64,000 nt of DNA from Thermoproteota archaeon (GCA_026986575.1 JALSOH010000006.1:320001-384000), one strand, 5' to 3'; shown: positions 36,812 through 43,743, numbered from the stretch's first letter. Notes: generated by a model not told the origin, from the sequence alone. Program-made: numbers and translations.

Positions 36812-37060
36812 GTGGTATTACTGAAGTCCCATATTCGGATCCTAAAGGAGCTGGTAAAACGCGGCGACAAGGGCATGACTGCCAGTAAGTTAATTGCCAA
36901 GAGGGAGTACCGAGTTAAGGTCATCAAGTACTTGGAGAGTGAGGGCCTGGTGAGGGTCACTTACAGCGGCGGCGGAATGAGAGTCTACGCCACTGAAAGG
37001 GCAAAGAAACTCCTTGAAAGGCTGGAAAAGGAGAAACCCGAGCTCTTGGTCAATACTTGA
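36812..37060 (+). CDS. Small winged-helix DNA-binding protein
   Basis: KYLESEGLVRV...YATERAKKLL wing motif; SD GGAGGTGG and TATA-like TTTATTAA upstream. Confidence 0.65.
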   Translation: MVLLKSHIRILKELVKRGDKGMTASKLIAKREYRVKVIKYLESEGLVRVTYSGGGMRVYATERAKKLLERLEKEKPELLVNT

Positions 37061-37643
37061 ATATTTCCCTGAGGTCTCGCACATAGAGACCCGCACCTTC
37101 TATCTTCCCTCCAACGCATATGGTGAGGCACCCTATCTCCTTCCCGGACCTTACATCCCATTCCATGTCCCCTAGAAATACGCAATCTCCTCCTTTAACA
37201 CCCAATTTTTTCAGGGCATAAACTAACTGTTCTCTCCTGTCCAGAGAGTACTCTCTAGTGACGATCACGTCGAACAGATCGGCTAGATTCATATTCCTCA
37301 GGACTAAAACGGCCGACCTGCTAGCTTGCATTGTTACAAGTCCTATTTGGAGGCCTTCTTTCCTTAAGGAAACGAGGAATTTTCTCAGTTCTTCGTCCTG
37401 TCGGGCCCTCGATGCTGCTTTCAATTCCTCCTCCTCTACTATCTCAAATGCCCGTTTAACCTCATCCTCGTTCCTAGCAGCTATAGGTATGCTCCTCCCC
37501 AAGGGTCTCAGGGGATGATCCCATCCCATCGCCCGCCTAACCCTCTCCCTGAGGGAATCCCAATCTATGCGGAGATCGACTAGGGTTCCATCCAGATCGG
37601 TTATCAGTGCTTTCTTACTCTGAAGAAGTTCACGGATCCGCAC
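37050..37643 (-). CDS. HAD-IA family hydrolase/phosphatase
   Basis: DLDGTLVD, LVT, FLGDMEWD..SG; start uncertain (GTG 37643 or upstream). Confidence 0.8.
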   Translation of the reverse strand: MRIRELLQSKKALITDLDGTLVDLRIDWDSLRERVRRAMGWDHPLRPLGRSIPIAARNEDEVKRAFEIVEEEELKAASRARQDEELRKFLVSLRKEGLQIGLVTMQASRSAVLVLRNMNLADLFDVIVTREYSLDRREQLVYALKKLGVKGGDCVFLGDMEWDVRSGKEIGCLTICVGGKIEGAGLYVRDLREIFKY

Positions 37644-39763
37644 TCCCTGCACTGGAGGTATACTCCATATTTCCCCTTCTTCGGGACCATCACCCCGCCG
37701 CATTTGGCGCACCTCACCGGGCTCTCCTCACAATTACCCAAGCACCTGATGTACTTGAGGGTCTTCTTACTCTTAGTTCTGATCCTTCCCTCCACCAGTG
37801 GGAGACCACACTTGCACTCCTCCCTCAGTATGCGCTCCCCCGGCAGGAGGTTGAACTTTACATCGCAGTCGTCAGGATAGCCAGAGCATATGACGAAGTA
37901 TCCGTACTTGCTCTTCTTGAGGAGGAGATCTCTCCCGCACTTCGGGCATTTCCCTATGATGTTCTGGGATAACCTGTATTCCTGAACAGCCTTGGCCAGC
38001 TTCTCCGAGATTAGCCCTTCCTTACTCTTGAAGTCCCTCATTATCTGCTCCAGTTTCAGTAACGCATCGCTGAGGAAGGAGCTGTGGTCTAACTCCCCTC
38101 TTTCAATCTTTGTCATGGCTTCTTCAAGCTTAGCCGTGAGCTCCGGGCTTGTAAGGTCTGGAACGTACTCCTCAAGCACCTCCGCGACCGCCTCTCCCAG
38201 TGGAGTAGGCTTGAAACTCTTACCTTCTATGTACCCCCTTTCCTTGAGTATGTCCAGTATCTGGACCCTAGTGTTCTTTGTTCCCAGACCCAACCTCTCC
38301 ATCTCCTTGATTATGGAGACCGGGGTGTACCTCTTTGGTGGCTGGGTCTCCTTCTCCTCTATCTTTACGTCGATGCACTTGACTTCCTCTCCATTGTCGA
38401 CCGGAGGCATCGAGTAATCTTTTTTGGCGTATGGATAGACCCTGAGCCATCCCTTCTCTAGCAGAGCGGCGCCGCTAGCCTTAAACCTGTACCCCTCCAC
38501 CACGATCTCCACATTCACCCTCTTGATGAGGGCGTCCGGTGCTAGGGTGGCCAGATTCCTCCTGGCTATTATCTCGTAGACTCTCCTGTGATTTCTACTC
38601 TGGAATTCTTCCTCAGGAGAACCGACTACATGGATGGTCGGGTGGGCTGGATCGTCCTTCTTCCCCTCCACGGGCCTGTCCCTCATGTTCTCTAACACGT
38701 AGGAAGCGTCCTCCTTGAGAGGGGAATAACTTCCTATGAGCTCGACCATCCCGACGAAGTCCTCCTTAGTCCAGTTTTTCGGGTACTTCTGGCTTTCCGT
38801 TCCGATGTAGCTGATGAGACCCGCTTCGTACAATTGCTGGGCGATTCCGGTCGATCGGTCTGCTATTTGCTTCGGGGTCAGCCCCGTTATCCTGCTCACC
38901 TCTATTTGCATGGAGGTACCATCAAAGGGAGGAGGAGGAGCGAGCGAGACCTTCTTAGACCTGACCTTGGCCTTGACCATCCTTCCCCTAATGGCCTCAG
39001 CCGCTCTCTCCGCATACTCCCTACTCCATACCTTCTCCTCACCCTTGGGAGGCGCCAGCTTGACCTCGAATGTCCCCTCTCCACTCTCCATCAGTGCTGT
39101 CACGACGTAATACTTCTTGGGAACGAAGTTCCTGATCTCCCGCTCCCTCTTCACTATGAGGGAGAGGGTAGGTCCTTGAACCCTGCCTGAACTGAGCACC
39201 CTCACCCAGCTCCTCTTCCTTGTGCTCAGGGTGAGCCCCCTCGAGACGTTGGCGCCCCACTGCAGGTCCAACACCCTCCTAGCGAATCCTGCATTAGCTC
39301 TGGGATAGTCAAAGGATTTGAGATTGTGGAAAGCTTCCTTTATCTCCTGAGCGTTCAGGGACGAGAACTCCATCCTGTAGATCTCCTTATTTTCCTCCCA
39401 TCCCAAGGCTCTCATTATCTCGAGGGCTATGGAACTCCCCTCGGCGTCCAAGTCCGTGGCAATGATTATCCTATCAGCCTTCCTCCCCAGCCTCTCTATC
39501 ACCCTTAGAAACTGGCTCTTCCCATCTATCTCCCTTAAGACAAGCTCCTCTGGGGGCAGGATTATCGGATAGACCCACTTACCCTCGGGATAGTCTAGCT
39601 CCAGCAGGTGTCCAGCTGCTGGCACTACCACGTACTCCTCACCACCGAGATCGAAAGTGTAGTAGGTTAATCTGCCGATCTTCTTCTGCTGAGGTTTCTT
39701 CGAGAGGATAGAAGCTATCCTCTTGGCGACCCTTGGCTTCTCTGTGAGTATTAGGGTGGTCAT
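37604..39763 (-). CDS. topA: Type IA DNA topoisomerase with C-terminal Zn ribbons
   Basis: EKP TOPRIM, GHL, ATDLDAEG, SGRVQ.PTL, AQQLYE.GLISY, AHP, GLGT..TR, three Cys-rich C-terminal motifs. Confidence 0.93.
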   Translation of the reverse strand: MTTLILTEKPRVAKRIASILSKKPQQKKIGRLTYYTFDLGGEEYVVVPAAGHLLELDYPEGKWVYPIILPPEELVLREIDGKSQFLRVIERLGRKADRIIIATDLDAEGSSIALEIMRALGWEENKEIYRMEFSSLNAQEIKEAFHNLKSFDYPRANAGFARRVLDLQWGANVSRGLTLSTRKRSWVRVLSSGRVQGPTLSLIVKREREIRNFVPKKYYVVTALMESGEGTFEVKLAPPKGEEKVWSREYAERAAEAIRGRMVKAKVRSKKVSLAPPPPFDGTSMQIEVSRITGLTPKQIADRSTGIAQQLYEAGLISYIGTESQKYPKNWTKEDFVGMVELIGSYSPLKEDASYVLENMRDRPVEGKKDDPAHPTIHVVGSPEEEFQSRNHRRVYEIIARRNLATLAPDALIKRVNVEIVVEGYRFKASGAALLEKGWLRVYPYAKKDYSMPPVDNGEEVKCIDVKIEEKETQPPKRYTPVSIIKEMERLGLGTKNTRVQILDILKERGYIEGKSFKPTPLGEAVAEVLEEYVPDLTSPELTAKLEEAMTKIERGELDHSSFLSDALLKLEQIMRDFKSKEGLISEKLAKAVQEYRLSQNIIGKCPKCGRDLLLKKSKYGYFVICSGYPDDCDVKFNLLPGERILREECKCGLPLVEGRIRTKSKKTLKYIRCLGNCEESPVRCAKCGGVMVPKKGKYGVYLQCRECGSVNFFRVRKH

Positions 39764-39849: not shown

Positions 39850-42800
39850 ATGCGAGGCCTCATGAAGGTAAAATTCGGGCTGCTGTTGATACTTCTACTC
39901 CTCCTACCAGCTTACGGCGTGAAGGCGACCACTCCGAGAACCCTAGTGGTCCATACTGGGACGGCTTGTATCTCCGGCGACCTGTACTTCGATCTACCTA
40001 GCGAAGCCCTGTCTTCAGCCTCCCCTAGTGATACGATACTCGTGTGTCCCGGAACCTATAGGGATAATGTGAAGATTGTAGTGAGCGATATCTCGTTCAG
40101 AGGTGTGGGTGACCCATCACAGGTCAGGATAGAGGCCCTAAATACCACCCAGAATGTCATAGAGCTGTGGAACGTGAGGAATGTGACGGTGGAGAATTTC
40201 ACCGTGGTAGGTGCTATCGGCTCCCAGATGGCGGGAATACACGTCCAGCTCTCTAGTGAGAGTCTCATCAGGAACATCGTCGCCACGGGTAATTACTTCG
40301 GGATCAACGTAGTATCGAGCTCAAACATCACTCTCAGCGGGATCGACGCGAGCAATAACACTAACGTGGGGATCAACGTGAAGGGGACAGTGATATCAGC
40401 GATCCGCGAATCCTCGGCCGAGGGGAACAGGGTAGGCCTGCTCCTCCTGTTCACATCCGATACCCTAGTAGAAAAGGTGAACACCACCGGAAACTCAGAA
40501 GGAGGGGTGCTGCTGGAGTACTCGGCCAACAACACATTCTCAAACCTGTTCTCCGGTAGGAACGGATGGTACGGGATCTACTTGGAAGATTCTGACGATA
40601 ATTCATTCTCTGATATCGTGACGGTGAACAACACGGCTTCTGGAAGCGACGGTTACGGTATCTACATCTACTTGAGGTCCGAGGACAACGAGTTCACCAA
40701 GATGAGTACTGAGGGAAACATCTACGGGGTTGCCGTGGTGTCACAATCCAACAGGAATTCCCTGACGAATTCCACGATGGAGAACAACACGATAGCTGGA
40801 GTTTACGTGGAGGCGAGCGAGGGTAACGAGATAGATGCGGAGATCTCGGGTAGCATGTACGGAGTGTGGATCCAAGACGGAAACGGTAACGAGATCAGAG
40901 GGGAGATAAGTGAATGCAGGTGGGGTGTGCTACTCTCCGGCCTCTCCGGATCGTCGGGCAATGTGATCAACGGCACATCTATACACGACAATTCGTATAC
41001 GGGCGTAATAGTGGAAGGTAACTCATCCCGAGGTAACGTAATTACTAGGATCTCTTCCTACAACAACACTCTATTGGGCATAGACTTGGGTGGAGACTTC
41101 GTGACGCTCAACGACGGTTCGCTGTCCACGGGTCCCAACGACCTAGTGGATTATCCCGTCTTCTCTTGGGCCGCTGTCTACGGGAGCAGGCTCATAGTGA
41201 GGGGTTACATAAATGTAGAGGGATCGAACAGCGCCAATTCCAATTTCGATAATGCAACCGTGGAGATCTACCAGTCTGACGGGGATCCCAGCGGATACGG
41301 TGAGGGTCTGAGGTACTTGGGCACTCTGATGGCGGAAAATGGTGAATTCATGGGATGGATAGATCTACCTCCCGAGCTGACCTCCAAGCCCATAAATCTG
41401 ACCGCTCTGACTACACTGCTCCCACACGGGACTTCCGAGTTCGGTCCGGTATACGAGGCGCCCGCTGTGGCGACGAACCTGACCATCTCCAAGTCCATCA
41501 ACCCTTCCACGGTGACGCCCAATTCCACAGCAGAAGTTTTACTCCTGATCAGGAATTACGGCAACGGAACCGCGTACAACGTCACGGTAACTGATGTACT
41601 CCCGGAGGGCATGGAATACATTAACGGAACCGCGAGGGTCGATGGAGACATTGTGGAGCCGGAAATCGAGGGCAGGAATCTGAGCTGGTTGCTGGATGTG
41701 CCAGCCTACTCCGAGGTCGTCATAAGGTTCAACGTCTCGATCAACGCACCAGCCGGCACGACCTTGGAGAACTTGGTGGTCTTCGATGGAGATTACGGGG
41801 ATGGGAACGACACCGATGAGGTCGATGTGATAAACCCGGCCATATTAGAGGTCACCAAGGAGGCCCAGCCCGACCTAGTGGATGTGAATGAGACAGTCAA
41901 CTACACGGTGATCCTCGCCAACTCTGGCGGAATGTCCGCCCTCCTGATGGTGGAGGACCTACTTCCATCTGGGATGAATTACGTGAATGGATCCTTCTCA
42001 TCCAACCAGACCGTGGACGGTCCGGTGATTGAGGGCGGACATATGAGGTACAACATCACCTTGAATCCAGGCCAAGCAGCTAGGGTGACGTATTCCCTCA
42101 TGGCAACAACATACGGCACTAAGGAGAACAAAGTATATGTCAACAACTCCTTCATGGCATCTGCCTCCGTGCTCGTGAGAGACCCGCCGCCTCCACCGCC
42201 TCCCGACAGTGGTGGTAACACCGGAGGGTCTAACCGCAGGAGAACCCCACCACCGTGCGGTTGGATACCCCCGAACAATGACATAGAGGATCAAGCCCCC
42301 CAGAATAATGGGGAAGAAACTCATAACTACAGGCTGACCAGTCCCCCGATAGTCTTGGTGTCATTGGGATCCCAAGGAATCTTCTCCTCTCATGGAGGGC
42401 AGGGTAGCTCCGGAACGGGATCAGGATCCAGCGGGAGCATCTCCACTTCGCAGAACGGGAGCGAAAACGGCATATCTGGAGTGGCTGGAGTAACCAGTCC
42501 TCCCTTGGTGGTGGTCGAGCTGATGGCCACACCGACTTCAGCTGAGACCGGGACGCCCATCACGTTCGTGGTCAGGGTGAGCAACATAGGGGATGGTCCA
42601 TCCAAGGATCTCTCCCTCACGGTGGACCTCACAAGCGGCTTGGACTATGTGAAAGGCACCTCCATGGTCGGAGGTCTCCGAAGGGAGCCAGATAACGAGA
42701 ATAACAGGCTAGAGTGGGAGATTGGGGACTTGGACCCAGGTAAAGCCGTCGAGGTCAGCTTCAGGGCTGAATTGCTGGCCACATCCGGCAGCTTCAACGT

Positions 42801-43743
42801 GGTAGCCAAGGCCGACTCCTCATCTGATAGCGTACTGATATCGGTTAAGCCCAAGTCCAAACCCGCCCCACCGAAACCGCCGGCCCCGCCACCCGAGGTG
42901 GTCGACCTCAGGGCATCTGCTAGCAACTCTGGAGGTAACAGCCGCATAAGGGTGACTATATCAAGCCCGACCGGGGCGAGATCCGTCAAGATACTGGTGA
43001 ACTTGGACCCGTCGCTCAGATACGTTCAGGGAAGCTCTAGAATAGGGGGAATAGCCTCACCCCCCAAGGTGAGCGGGAACGTGCTGGAATGGCATGTCTC
43101 TATTTCAAAGGGAGGCACGGCCACCATAACGTTCGAAGTAGCGCCAGCTGATGAGGAGTCTACTGGTGGTAGCGTGCTGGTCTCCCTGCCCAAGTACGGG
43201 AAGAGCGTCAAGGTGGAGGTGGAGTTCAGTCCCGCCCAGAGAGGGGTTGCTCCACCACCAACCTTCAGCATAGAACTGCCGTCCCTTCCGTCAATCCCGT
43301 GGTGGGTGATACTAATTCCCTTGGCACTGATCCCCTTCCTGCTGGCGGTGAGAAGGAGGGAAAGGGTCAAGAGGATAGTGATGGATTACGAGGCGCTGAA
43401 GTGGGCGGTGAGGAGAGGGGTCCTAGAGGACCTAGTCCAAGACCACGAGATACTGATACCCATGGAGACCTTCAACAAGCTGAGCAGGGACCGGGCTCTC
43501 ATGTCCTCCATAGAGAAGCTCATAGTTGACAGGGCTATAAAGGTCGAGAAAGCCCCGAAGAGGAAGATCGTCGTGAAGGGGGCTGACGAGGAGCTTTCAG
43601 CCGCTCTGGGTCTGGCGGACAGGGAGGGCATACCGATATACACCGGCAGGGAGGAACTGCTCAAGGAGCTCAAAAGGAGGGGCTTCGATGCGAGGTTGAT
43701 AAGGGAGGCCCCCCCGCCGGTGCTGAAGAGGGAGCTCCCCTAA
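39850..43743 (+). CDS. Large membrane-anchored surface protein: signal peptide, parallel beta-helix (NosD/PbH1), DUF11-like repeats, Pro/Ser linkers, TM helix, C-terminal PIN-like domain
   Basis: Repeated N..GI.L..S..N units; ISKS...N.G...A.NVTVTDVLP.G..Y..G repeats; WWVILIPLALIPFLLAVRRR anchor; tail RIVMDYEAL...ILIP...LGLA...IYTG. Confidence 0.8.
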   Translation: MRGLMKVKFGLLLILLLLLPAYGVKATTPRTLVVHTGTACISGDLYFDLPSEALSSASPSDTILVCPGTYRDNVKIVVSDISFRGVGDPSQVRIEALNTTQNVIELWNVRNVTVENFTVVGAIGSQMAGIHVQLSSESLIRNIVATGNYFGINVVSSSNITLSGIDASNNTNVGINVKGTVISAIRESSAEGNRVGLLLLFTSDTLVEKVNTTGNSEGGVLLEYSANNTFSNLFSGRNGWYGIYLEDSDDNSFSDIVTVNNTASGSDGYGIYIYLRSEDNEFTKMSTEGNIYGVAVVSQSNRNSLTNSTMENNTIAGVYVEASEGNEIDAEISGSMYGVWIQDGNGNEIRGEISECRWGVLLSGLSGSSGNVINGTSIHDNSYTGVIVEGNSSRGNVITRISSYNNTLLGIDLGGDFVTLNDGSLSTGPNDLVDYPVFSWAAVYGSRLIVRGYINVEGSNSANSNFDNATVEIYQSDGDPSGYGEGLRYLGTLMAENGEFMGWIDLPPELTSKPINLTALTTLLPHGTSEFGPVYEAPAVATNLTISKSINPSTVTPNSTAEVLLLIRNYGNGTAYNVTVTDVLPEGMEYINGTARVDGDIVEPEIEGRNLSWLLDVPAYSEVVIRFNVSINAPAGTTLENLVVFDGDYGDGNDTDEVDVINPAILEVTKEAQPDLVDVNETVNYTVILANSGGMSALLMVEDLLPSGMNYVNGSFSSNQTVDGPVIEGGHMRYNITLNPGQAARVTYSLMATTYGTKENKVYVNNSFMASASVLVRDPPPPPPPDSGGNTGGSNRRRTPPPCGWIPPNNDIEDQAPQNNGEETHNYRLTSPPIVLVSLGSQGIFSSHGGQGSSGTGSGSSGSISTSQNGSENGISGVAGVTSPPLVVVELMATPTSAETGTPITFVVRVSNIGDGPSKDLSLTVDLTSGLDYVKGTSMVGGLRREPDNENNRLEWEIGDLDPGKAVEVSFRAELLATSGSFNVVAKADSSSDSVLISVKPKSKPAPPKPPAPPPEVVDLRASASNSGGNSRIRVTISSPTGARSVKILVNLDPSLRYVQGSSRIGGIASPPKVSGNVLEWHVSISKGGTATITFEVAPADEESTGGSVLVSLPKYGKSVKVEVEFSPAQRGVAPPPTFSIELPSLPSIPWWVILIPLALIPFLLAVRRRERVKRIVMDYEALKWAVRRGVLEDLVQDHEILIPMETFNKLSRDRALMSSIEKLIVDRAIKVEKAPKRKIVVKGADEELSAALGLADREGIPIYTGREELLKELKRRGFDARLIREAPPPVLKRELP

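Follow-up and report, generated by a model that had tools for sequence, protein, structure and literature searches.

A predicted PIN-like domain behind the C-terminal membrane anchor of korarchaeal beta-helix/DUF11 surface proteins

PIN domains are known as soluble toxins and as RNA-processing enzymes. A different arrangement is that of IRE1, in which a sensor domain on the opposite side of the membrane is connected through one transmembrane (TM) helix to a cytosolic RNase of the kinase/KEN RNase fold. One membrane-tethered PIN group, PIN.COG4956, is included in the 2017 classification (Matelska et al. 2017, PMC5499597); according to that paper, it has four N-terminal TM helices followed by a PIN and a TRAM domain, no large ectodomain, an almost entirely bacterial distribution, and an unknown function. 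Utp23 is described in the same paper (Matelska et al., PMC5499597) as a nuclease that is apparently inactive and functions in general RNA binding. Full-text literature searches, in a collection without most subscription journals, turned up no account of archaeal surface proteins with PIN-like tails, and Korarchaeum is mentioned only in unrelated contexts in PMC4460559 and PMC5898192. The gene described here is located at positions 39850-43743 (+) of the window, that is, the whole stretch of 64,000 nucleotides analysed (JALSOH010000006.1:320001-384000, from the Thermoproteota archaeon assembly GCA_026986575.1). It is one open reading frame (ORF) of 1297 aa (P0001; stop codon included, no internal stops), and its C-terminal tail (residues 1168-1297) is predicted to be a PIN-like domain on the cytoplasmic side of the anchor of a large surface protein. 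A known fold is found here in an undescribed and recurrent architectural context.

The tail is assigned to the PIN-like fold by structure prediction. A single-sequence AlphaFold model had a pLDDT of 68.5 and gave weak Foldseek matches (E ~0.1); it was superseded by an AlphaFold2 model made with a 20-row, orthologue-only tail alignment (A2), which reached a pLDDT of 81.6 and a pTM of 0.73. The strands of this model (tail residues 5-9, 30-35, 61-64, 94-96 and 112-114) are arranged in the order strand-helix-helix-strand-helix-helix-strand-helix-strand-helix-strand, which is the element order of the PIN superfamily, whose fold has three alpha/beta/alpha layers and a parallel sheet of about five strands. 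A Foldseek search against the PDB returned PIN domains almost exclusively (probability 1.00, TM 0.53-0.67). The best match was SSO1118 (2mdt, E 4e-4), and the others included 3ix7, 1y82, 1o4w, 1v8o, PAE2754, VapC4, HARP, Utp24 and the PIN end of an archaeal RuvB-like helicase. Comparison with 48,161 representative chains by VIA-align was similar: ranks 1-38 (Z 8.0-12.6) were by title nearly all PIN, VapC, Nob1, Utp24, Utp23, SMG5, EST1A, Rrp44 or HARP entries, and the few whose titles do not name the chain are presumably PIN proteins as well. Below rank 38, three intermediate rows (Z 7.4, 7.0 and 6.1) were followed by unrelated Rossmann-like folds from Z 5.5. An earlier note on this DNA, made from the sequence alone, had recognized a PIN/VapC pattern in the tail; the pattern is borne out by the fold in AlphaFold2, Foldseek and VIA-align, and the AlphaFold and Foldseek check proposed in that note gave a PIN-like result, not a different fold. 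The closest clusters among the ESM Atlas features were archaeal PIN_9 families (0.84-0.88, below the lead threshold of 0.9). Sequence searches were less informative: phmmer with the tail (query P0002, residues 1170-1297) and hmmsearch with the tail profile found nothing significant among the PDB sequences (best PIN 1o4w, E 0.11; eS25, 0.13), and the tail was absent from the results of the Pfam PIN family searches with PF01850 in this genome and with PF18477 (PIN_9) in the class. An uncontrolled two-copy complex prediction of the tail scored 0.00 and has no bearing either way on dimerisation.

The features of the gene are as follows, all on the + strand of the window.

39850..39927, +, signal peptide, residues 1-26 (hydropathy peak at residues 1-29)
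39928..41169, +, right-handed beta-helix of the NosD/Beta_helix type, residues ~27-440 (PF13229 2e-24, PF05048 5e-19; NCBIfam para_beta_helix repeats)
41170..41469, +, post-helix domain, residues ~441-540, common to a 3251-aa paralogue and with no Pfam name (BLASTP)
41470..42189, +, DUF11/DUF7927 beta-sandwich repeats 1-2, residues ~541-780 (PF01345, PF25549, TIGR01451)
42190..42498, +, Pro/Gly/Ser-rich low-complexity linker, residues ~781-883 (from the sequence; the fastest-evolving segment)
42499..42849, +, DUF11/CARDB repeat 3, residues ~884-1000 (best PF01345 stretch 889-993; PF07705)
42850..43293, +, Pro/Lys linker, a domain-sized segment with no family match and a pre-anchor stretch, residues 1001-1148 (identity 57%, at the level of folded domains)
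43294..43350, +, single TM helix, residues 1149-1167, IPWWVILIPLALIPFLLAV (hydropathy maximum 2.38)
43351..43374, +, basic stop-transfer cluster RRRERVKR, residues 1168-1175 (K/R count; basic clusters in 19/19 orthologous tails)
43369..43701, +, predicted PIN-like alpha/beta domain, residues ~1174-1284 (AlphaFold2, Foldseek, VIA-align, profile links)
43702..43740, +, Pro-rich C-terminal end, residues 1285-1297, modelled as disordered (pLDDT <50 at tail residues 122-128)

Upstream of the tail, the protein has the signal peptide, beta-helix, DUF11-type repeats and C-terminal anchor of archaeal beta-helix/DUF11 surface proteins. DUF11 (PF01345) matched in three stretches at 2.9e-28, TIGR01451 of NCBIfam at 4.5e-21, and DUF7927 and CARDB were also found; hydropathy and these families agree with the signal peptide, beta-helix and DUF11-like repeats named in the earlier note. 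Translation may truly begin at M5, as in the consensus of 12 orthologues. The hydropathy scan (19-residue window, threshold 1.6) detected two hydrophobic segments only, the N-terminus and residues 1149-1167; the TM helix had been placed beforehand at ~43300-43350 with a basic stop-transfer, close to where it lies. The tail sequence was likewise quoted correctly, and its length (~125 aa, residues 1168-1297) is near the ~120 aa given. Several features suggest that the tail is on the cytoplasmic side (N-out, C-in), as that note had assumed. The K+R count is 7 in the 20 residues after the TM helix versus 1 in the 20 before it, in line with the positive-inside rule. N-x-S/T sequons number 30 in the ectodomain (17.2 +/- 3.6 in shuffles) versus 0 in the tail. 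Moreover, the ectodomain is rich in N, S, T and G with 2% Lys; whereas the tail contains 22% K+R and 18% D+E. The expectation that such surface proteins end at the anchor is roughly supported in this genome: by a crude hydropathy scan of ORFs of at least 300 aa with one N-terminal and one C-terminal hydrophobic segment (n=51), 39/51 have at most 25 residues past the anchor.

Three further ORFs of the genome, outside the window, also carry a segment behind a TM helix. In two of them, of 382 aa (G000:C4:222602-223747 (-)) and 355 aa (G000:C4:176714-177778 (-)), an N-terminal hydrophobic segment is followed by a second TM helix and by a cytoplasmic tail, in which a winged-helix-like motif (ELPELTGFSK.K.SR.LK.L) was recognized by eye; on this reading they look like membrane-anchored transcription regulators. 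The third (968 aa, G000:C4:450333-453236 (+)) is another surface protein with a long cytoplasmic end; it has a signal peptide, a TM helix at residues 702-720 and a 248-residue tail, which is very acidic and Glu/Pro-rich, then helical-looking, and unrelated in sequence to the PIN-like tail.

The fusion of the tail to the surface protein is real. The tail query has matches in 17/20 further genomes of the genus, and the three genomes with no match are 86%, 70% and 63% complete. The host is a korarchaeon; the name Korarchaeum for its genus (g1) is taken from the deposited names of matching proteins, and of the orthologues (1252-1302 aa in the protein collections) one is deposited as 'NosD domain-containing protein [Candidatus Korarchaeota archaeon]' and another as 'DUF11 domain-containing protein [Candidatus Korarchaeum cryptofilum]'. 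Nineteen orthologous tails from 18 genomes, including the present one (G000), are all in frame behind a hydrophobic helix and a basic cluster, and this practically excludes a separate ORF fused by a sequencing error, an outcome that the earlier note had allowed for. The frames are 1258-1320 aa long at 17/19 tail loci. The first exception is a 533-aa frame in G019 (L005), where the locus stops short at the place of the 5' part of the gene, consistent with a contig end. The second is an orthologous frame of 411-475 aa in an 80%-complete metagenome-assembled genome (MAG; G025:C92, L013), which may reflect a local frameshift or an assembly break. Two tail loci are present in G019 (L005 and L023, 96% and 92% identical to the query), perhaps from two strains in one MAG. 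Among 17 full-length orthologues, the mean identity to the window protein is 64% for the tail, 57-70% for the folded ectodomain parts and 44% for the Pro/Gly/Ser linker; therefore, the tail evolves in the manner of a folded, selected domain, and not as a hypervariable cassette or a drifting appendix. At least 90% conservation is seen at 24/128 tail positions.

Homologous tails were also found on other, much larger surface proteins, a recurrence that had not been seen in the earlier note, although the search for other ectodomains with the same tail had been proposed there. A 3251-aa ORF of the same genome, outside the window (G000:C9:86923-96675 (-), locus L085:1424-11176 (-)), has a signal peptide, Beta_helix and DUF11 domains, many domains with no assignment and one C-terminal TM helix. 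Its tail begins AMLIDYSALRDLIGRG..., visibly like IVMDYEALKWAVRRG... of the 1297-aa protein, and is related to A2 by hhalign (92.5%, E 4.7e-7); it has ~100 residues and ends before strands 4-5. The similarity between the two proteins (P0025 and P0001) spans the last part of the beta-helix, the post-helix domain and DUF11 (BLASTP: 35% identity over 260 columns, E 4e-17, residues 372-588), and the paralogue has ~2000 extra N-terminal residues of its own. Sequence searches of the genome with P0002 or P0001 did not return this paralogue, which was found by the hydropathy scan alone. A class search with its tail gave matches in 13/40 genomes and 4/7 genera, all of them terminal in frames of 862-3328 aa and one in an orthologue of the 1297-aa protein. 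The 13 further giant tails each lie behind a hydrophobic helix and a basic cluster, and as a set they match A2 at 97.4-97.6% in hhalign (E 1e-11 to 4e-12, 111-114 columns).

The merged tail profile (A3, 22 rows) matched 30/43 genomes of the phylum and 6/10 genera, with the strong matches again at the ends of frames of 862-3328 aa; the A3 matches include a frame of 2670 aa from f4, a different family within the phylum. Several giant tails of g1 end after ~100-105 residues, without strands 4-5. A third kind of giant frame (~2546 aa) was found in a complete 1.59-Mb genome (G011:C1:277971-278132 (+), locus L116), and also in G015, G028, G012, G025 and G029; its tail has ~105 residues, with a match to the family profile (E 2.7e-5) for the first ~54 only. 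A search of 1.84 billion representatives with the tail gave 3 matches, all of the same family, and no tail relative was found beyond Korarchaeota in the large protein collections, where the word-indexed searches were limited to proteins of at most 2000-2270 aa, below the giant length, and returned Korarchaeota beta-helix/DUF11 proteins only. On these sequence comparisons, the tail family is phylum-restricted and located at the C-termini of several giant surface proteins. Three weak matches to the tail query were obtained in g5 (L021, L022 and L024); two of them, L021 and L024, were judged spurious, as their translations resemble the C-terminal part of GatE.

Profile comparison indicates that the tail family descends from PIN+DUF3368 proteins (COG2405-like, PADLOC 'PDC-S70'). 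The weaker A3 matches were small frames of 134-235 aa, and four of these are PIN+DUF3368 proteins. The one in the present genome is a 167-aa frame (G000:C1:28931-29431 (-), locus L107:232-732 (-)) with matches to PF11848 (8.3e-13), PF20698 (1.3e-6) and PADLOC PDC-S70 (6.7e-41); DUF3368 occurs in 6/40 genomes of the class and, within g1, in this genome only. By hhalign, A3 is related to five PIN+DUF3368 proteins at 95.5% (E 1.5e-8, 113 columns), the giant tails alone to the same set at 94.1% (E 1.3e-7), and A3 to 21 VapC-type PINs of the genome at 87.2% (E 3.9e-6); eleven reversed-template controls gave P values of 0.0017-0.64. Two giant tails of g5 also match PDC-S70 directly in HMMER (6.9e-8 and 1.3e-4). 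The giant tails showed no relation to PIN_9 in hhalign (0.6%). The tail of the 1297-aa protein itself gave no DUF3368 (PF11848) or PDC-S70 match; a Pro-rich stretch follows its strand 5.

The PIN family in general is abundant in this genome. PF01850 has 54 matches at E <=0.001 in 1.9 Mb, four of which contain stop codons, and this is a large VapC-type expansion.

The acidic site of the tail has been changed. According to three profile alignments (VapC, PIN_9 and PIN+DUF3368 sets), the canonical D-E-D-D positions, which in active PIN nucleases are conserved acids at the C-terminal edge of the sheet, are mapped to D1179, K1210, L1249 and R1267, so that only the first Asp of the tetrad is in register. 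The earlier note had seen the first Asp as kept and the other acidic positions as substituted. This mapping agrees with it, with the qualification that E1248 and E1268 are conserved one residue away from the third and fourth canonical positions (E or D in 20/20 and E in 18/20, respectively). In the MAFFT alignment of A3, the g2/g3 tails have an 'LSD' motif whose Asp is aligned with the E1268 column, and the register of the last two acids is therefore uncertain by one residue. Residues D1179, T1207, K1210 (tail position 41, K in 19/19) and D1214 do not vary among the 19 full orthologous tails, whereas position 1267 is variable (R 7, E 4, N 4, D 4, K 1; n=20). Across the 22 family members, only D1179 (D10) is invariant, and T1207 (T38) and D1214 (D45) are nearly so; from their positions at helix starts in the model, these three residues could be helix caps. 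The giant tails of g1 that lack strands 4-5 cannot be PIN nucleases. The alignments suggest that the canonical VapC-type site is gone in the orthologue group of the 1297-aa protein.

The gene is alone on the + strand at its locus. A divergent type IA topoisomerase gene is located upstream, and a convergent CoA-transferase gene, kept at 17/18 orthologous loci, begins the downstream side 10 bp past the stop codon. Farther away lie genes for an ornithine cyclodeaminase-family protein, a methyltransferase and a HAD hydrolase. Among the window neighbours, no antitoxin-like or immunity gene adjoins the ORF, as had been noted before, and the 10-bp gap leaves no room for one downstream; there is also no sign of an operon partner at the locus, and no regulatory neighbour or inhibitor gene, the flanks being the topoisomerase and the CoA-transferase.

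Two observations concern the upstream neighbours. A winged-helix-like ORF of 82 aa at window 36812-37060 (+) resembles MC2 of ABC-3C systems in Pfam, though below threshold (24.0 bits, cut-off 26.9). Counted from their first start codons, the HAD-hydrolase ORF (37050-37712 (-)) and the topoisomerase ORF (37604-39763 (-)) overlap by ~109 bases, and the HAD gene probably starts further downstream than its first start codon.

The explanation that we favour, with roughly even confidence, is that the tail is an exapted toxin-type PIN domain, which would no longer be a VapC-like RNase and would serve as a membrane-proximal binding module for an RNA or protein partner. The gene product would be a type-I (N-out, C-in) korarchaeal surface glycoprotein made of a beta-helix and a DUF11 beta-sandwich stalk. 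A compact PIN-like domain would lie directly behind the anchor and the basic cluster, at the inner face of the membrane. The tail is read as having lost the VapC-like activity because the canonical tetrad is remodelled: at the putative metal-binding site D1179 is kept, K1210 takes the Glu position, and E1248 and E1268 are off register. The tail would probably act as a binding module and be a constitutive part of the surface protein. The substituted positions also fit the pseudo-nuclease that had been one of the two options of the earlier note.

Several results weigh against this explanation. The searches identified no partner, ligand or RNA of the tail. No Pfam or NCBIfam family was matched on the tail, even at E up to 10. 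The A2 alignment alone is weakly linked to the VapC set (30.6%, P 5e-4) and to PIN_9 (43.1%, P 2.5e-4), barely beyond the controls, and to the PIN+DUF3368 set at 3.1% (E 0.014); for this reason, the sequence link of the 1297-aa protein to PIN is transitive through the giant tails. It is backed independently by the predicted fold match. In addition, 4 of the 13 giant tails in A3 (g2 and g3) have an acid at or next to three or four canonical positions. Even in orthologues with identities as low as 35-40%, the residues D1179, T1207, K1210, E1248, G1266 and E1268 vary little or not at all. Judged from the alignments, these conserved polar residues at the pocket edge are more suggestive of a functional site than of a pseudo-site in drift, and leave room for a remodelled or non-canonical nuclease.

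The leading alternative, possible in our estimate but rather unlikely, is a one-component TM sensor, developed from the model of the earlier note: binding or mechanical load at the ectodomain (glycan, cell or virus) would alter the oligomeric state of the tail and switch on its RNase, as a response to contact or infection. The replacement of the canonical Glu by an invariant Lys, and the third and fourth acids being off register, are difficult to combine with it. The persistence of paralogous tails without strands 4-5 (~100-105 residues) and the lack of an inhibitor, antitoxin or regulatory gene at the locus also speak against it. Its merits are the PIN-like fold on the cytoplasmic side, the conservation of D1179, T1207, K1210, E1248 and E1268 (in 18-19 of the 19-20 sequences with a residue there), the near-canonical acids retained by the g2/g3 giant tails, and the ancestry in PIN+DUF3368 proteins, which correspond to the PADLOC phage-defence candidate PDC-S70.

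A wider version, which we consider improbable, extends this idea to a korarchaeal family of single-pass receptors, in which giant adhesin-like ectodomains would be wired to a cytoplasmic PIN nuclease. The g2/g3 forms would be active, the D/K/E/E site of the present protein would be a remodelled one, and events at the surface, for example the docking of a virus, contact with a cell or damage to the envelope, would trigger RNA cleavage. If true, it would represent an archaeal IRE1-like or abortive-infection-like route, leading from the cell exterior straight to RNA.

The truncated tails of the paralogues, the eroded catalytic residues and the failure of the searches to identify a partner might also be explained by an evolutionary relic, i.e. 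a PIN toxin gene that became joined to a surface-protein gene in the past and has since been decaying without function. A decaying appendix does not agree with a tail that is conserved like the folded ectodomains and well above the linker, stays in frame in all orthologues, and keeps its set of highly conserved positions; this explanation is quite improbable. A polymorphic or contact-dependent toxin, with a deliverable C-terminal nuclease on a filamentous surface stalk, is suggested by the combination of a large beta-helix/repeat stalk and a C-terminal nuclease-type fold. We regard it as very improbable: stalk and domain are separated by the stop-transfer TM helix and the basic cluster, the tail is not polymorphic and diverges along with the stalk, and no immunity gene fits the gap before the convergent gene. 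According to Zhang et al. 2012 (PMC3482391), PIN domains are apparently unused in polymorphic toxins, and such systems are rare in archaea. Finally, the joining of two genes by a sequencing or annotation error has next to no probability, since nothing was found for it apart from the possible local frameshift in G025, whereas the same continuous frame is present at 17/19 loci and independently deposited proteins share the architecture.

In these giant, Sec-exported surface proteins a toxin-type PIN domain appears to have been captured to form the cytoplasmic end, and to have been retained across the phylum. An inactive tail would be a clear example of a domain from toxin-antitoxin systems being exapted into the architecture of the cell envelope, and would offer a handle on the contacts that an archaeal surface protein makes at its inside end. 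An active tail would represent a new way of coupling cell-surface events to RNA cleavage.

The relationships with the described systems can be compared on these grounds. The PIN+DUF3368 (PDC-S70) proteins are the closest in sequence: their PIN core is homologous to the tail family as a whole at the profile level, and the g5 giant tails have a similar C-terminal helical extension. However, these proteins are small, soluble and stand-alone, with a DUF3368 domain; whereas the present tail is fused behind a TM anchor without DUF3368, and has K, L and R at catalytic positions 2-4, where the five sequences compared have E, E and D. VapC toxins share the predicted fold (VIA Z 9.4-10.9 to VapC21, VapC15, VapC2 and others) and the first Asp after strand 1, but the tail has no PF01850 match, no adjacent antitoxin as in VapBC, where that gene is usually upstream and overlaps the toxin gene, and no tetrad, and it is the end of a 1297-aa ORF, not a free-standing protein. 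The YacL-like PIN.COG4956 group also holds a PIN domain at the membrane, and the structure of 3ix7, which represents the group, ranks among the closest matches in fold (Foldseek E 9.4e-4, TM 0.64; VIA Z 9.4); the present protein differs in its single C-terminal anchor after a Sec-exported ectodomain of more than 1100 aa, and in having no TRAM match in Pfam. The inactive PIN binding modules Utp23, SMG5 and Nmd4 are similar in fold (VIA Z 8.1-9.3) and in their incomplete acidic tetrad. They are eukaryotic, soluble and part of RNA-processing machines, and the likeness to the tail seen here is one of fold. Polymorphic toxin systems differ from the present protein, in which the tail is not variable, no immunity gene follows downstream and a TM anchor precedes the domain. 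With IRE1, the analogy would be one of logic, namely that of the proposed RNase-linked sensor; the RNase folds themselves are unrelated.

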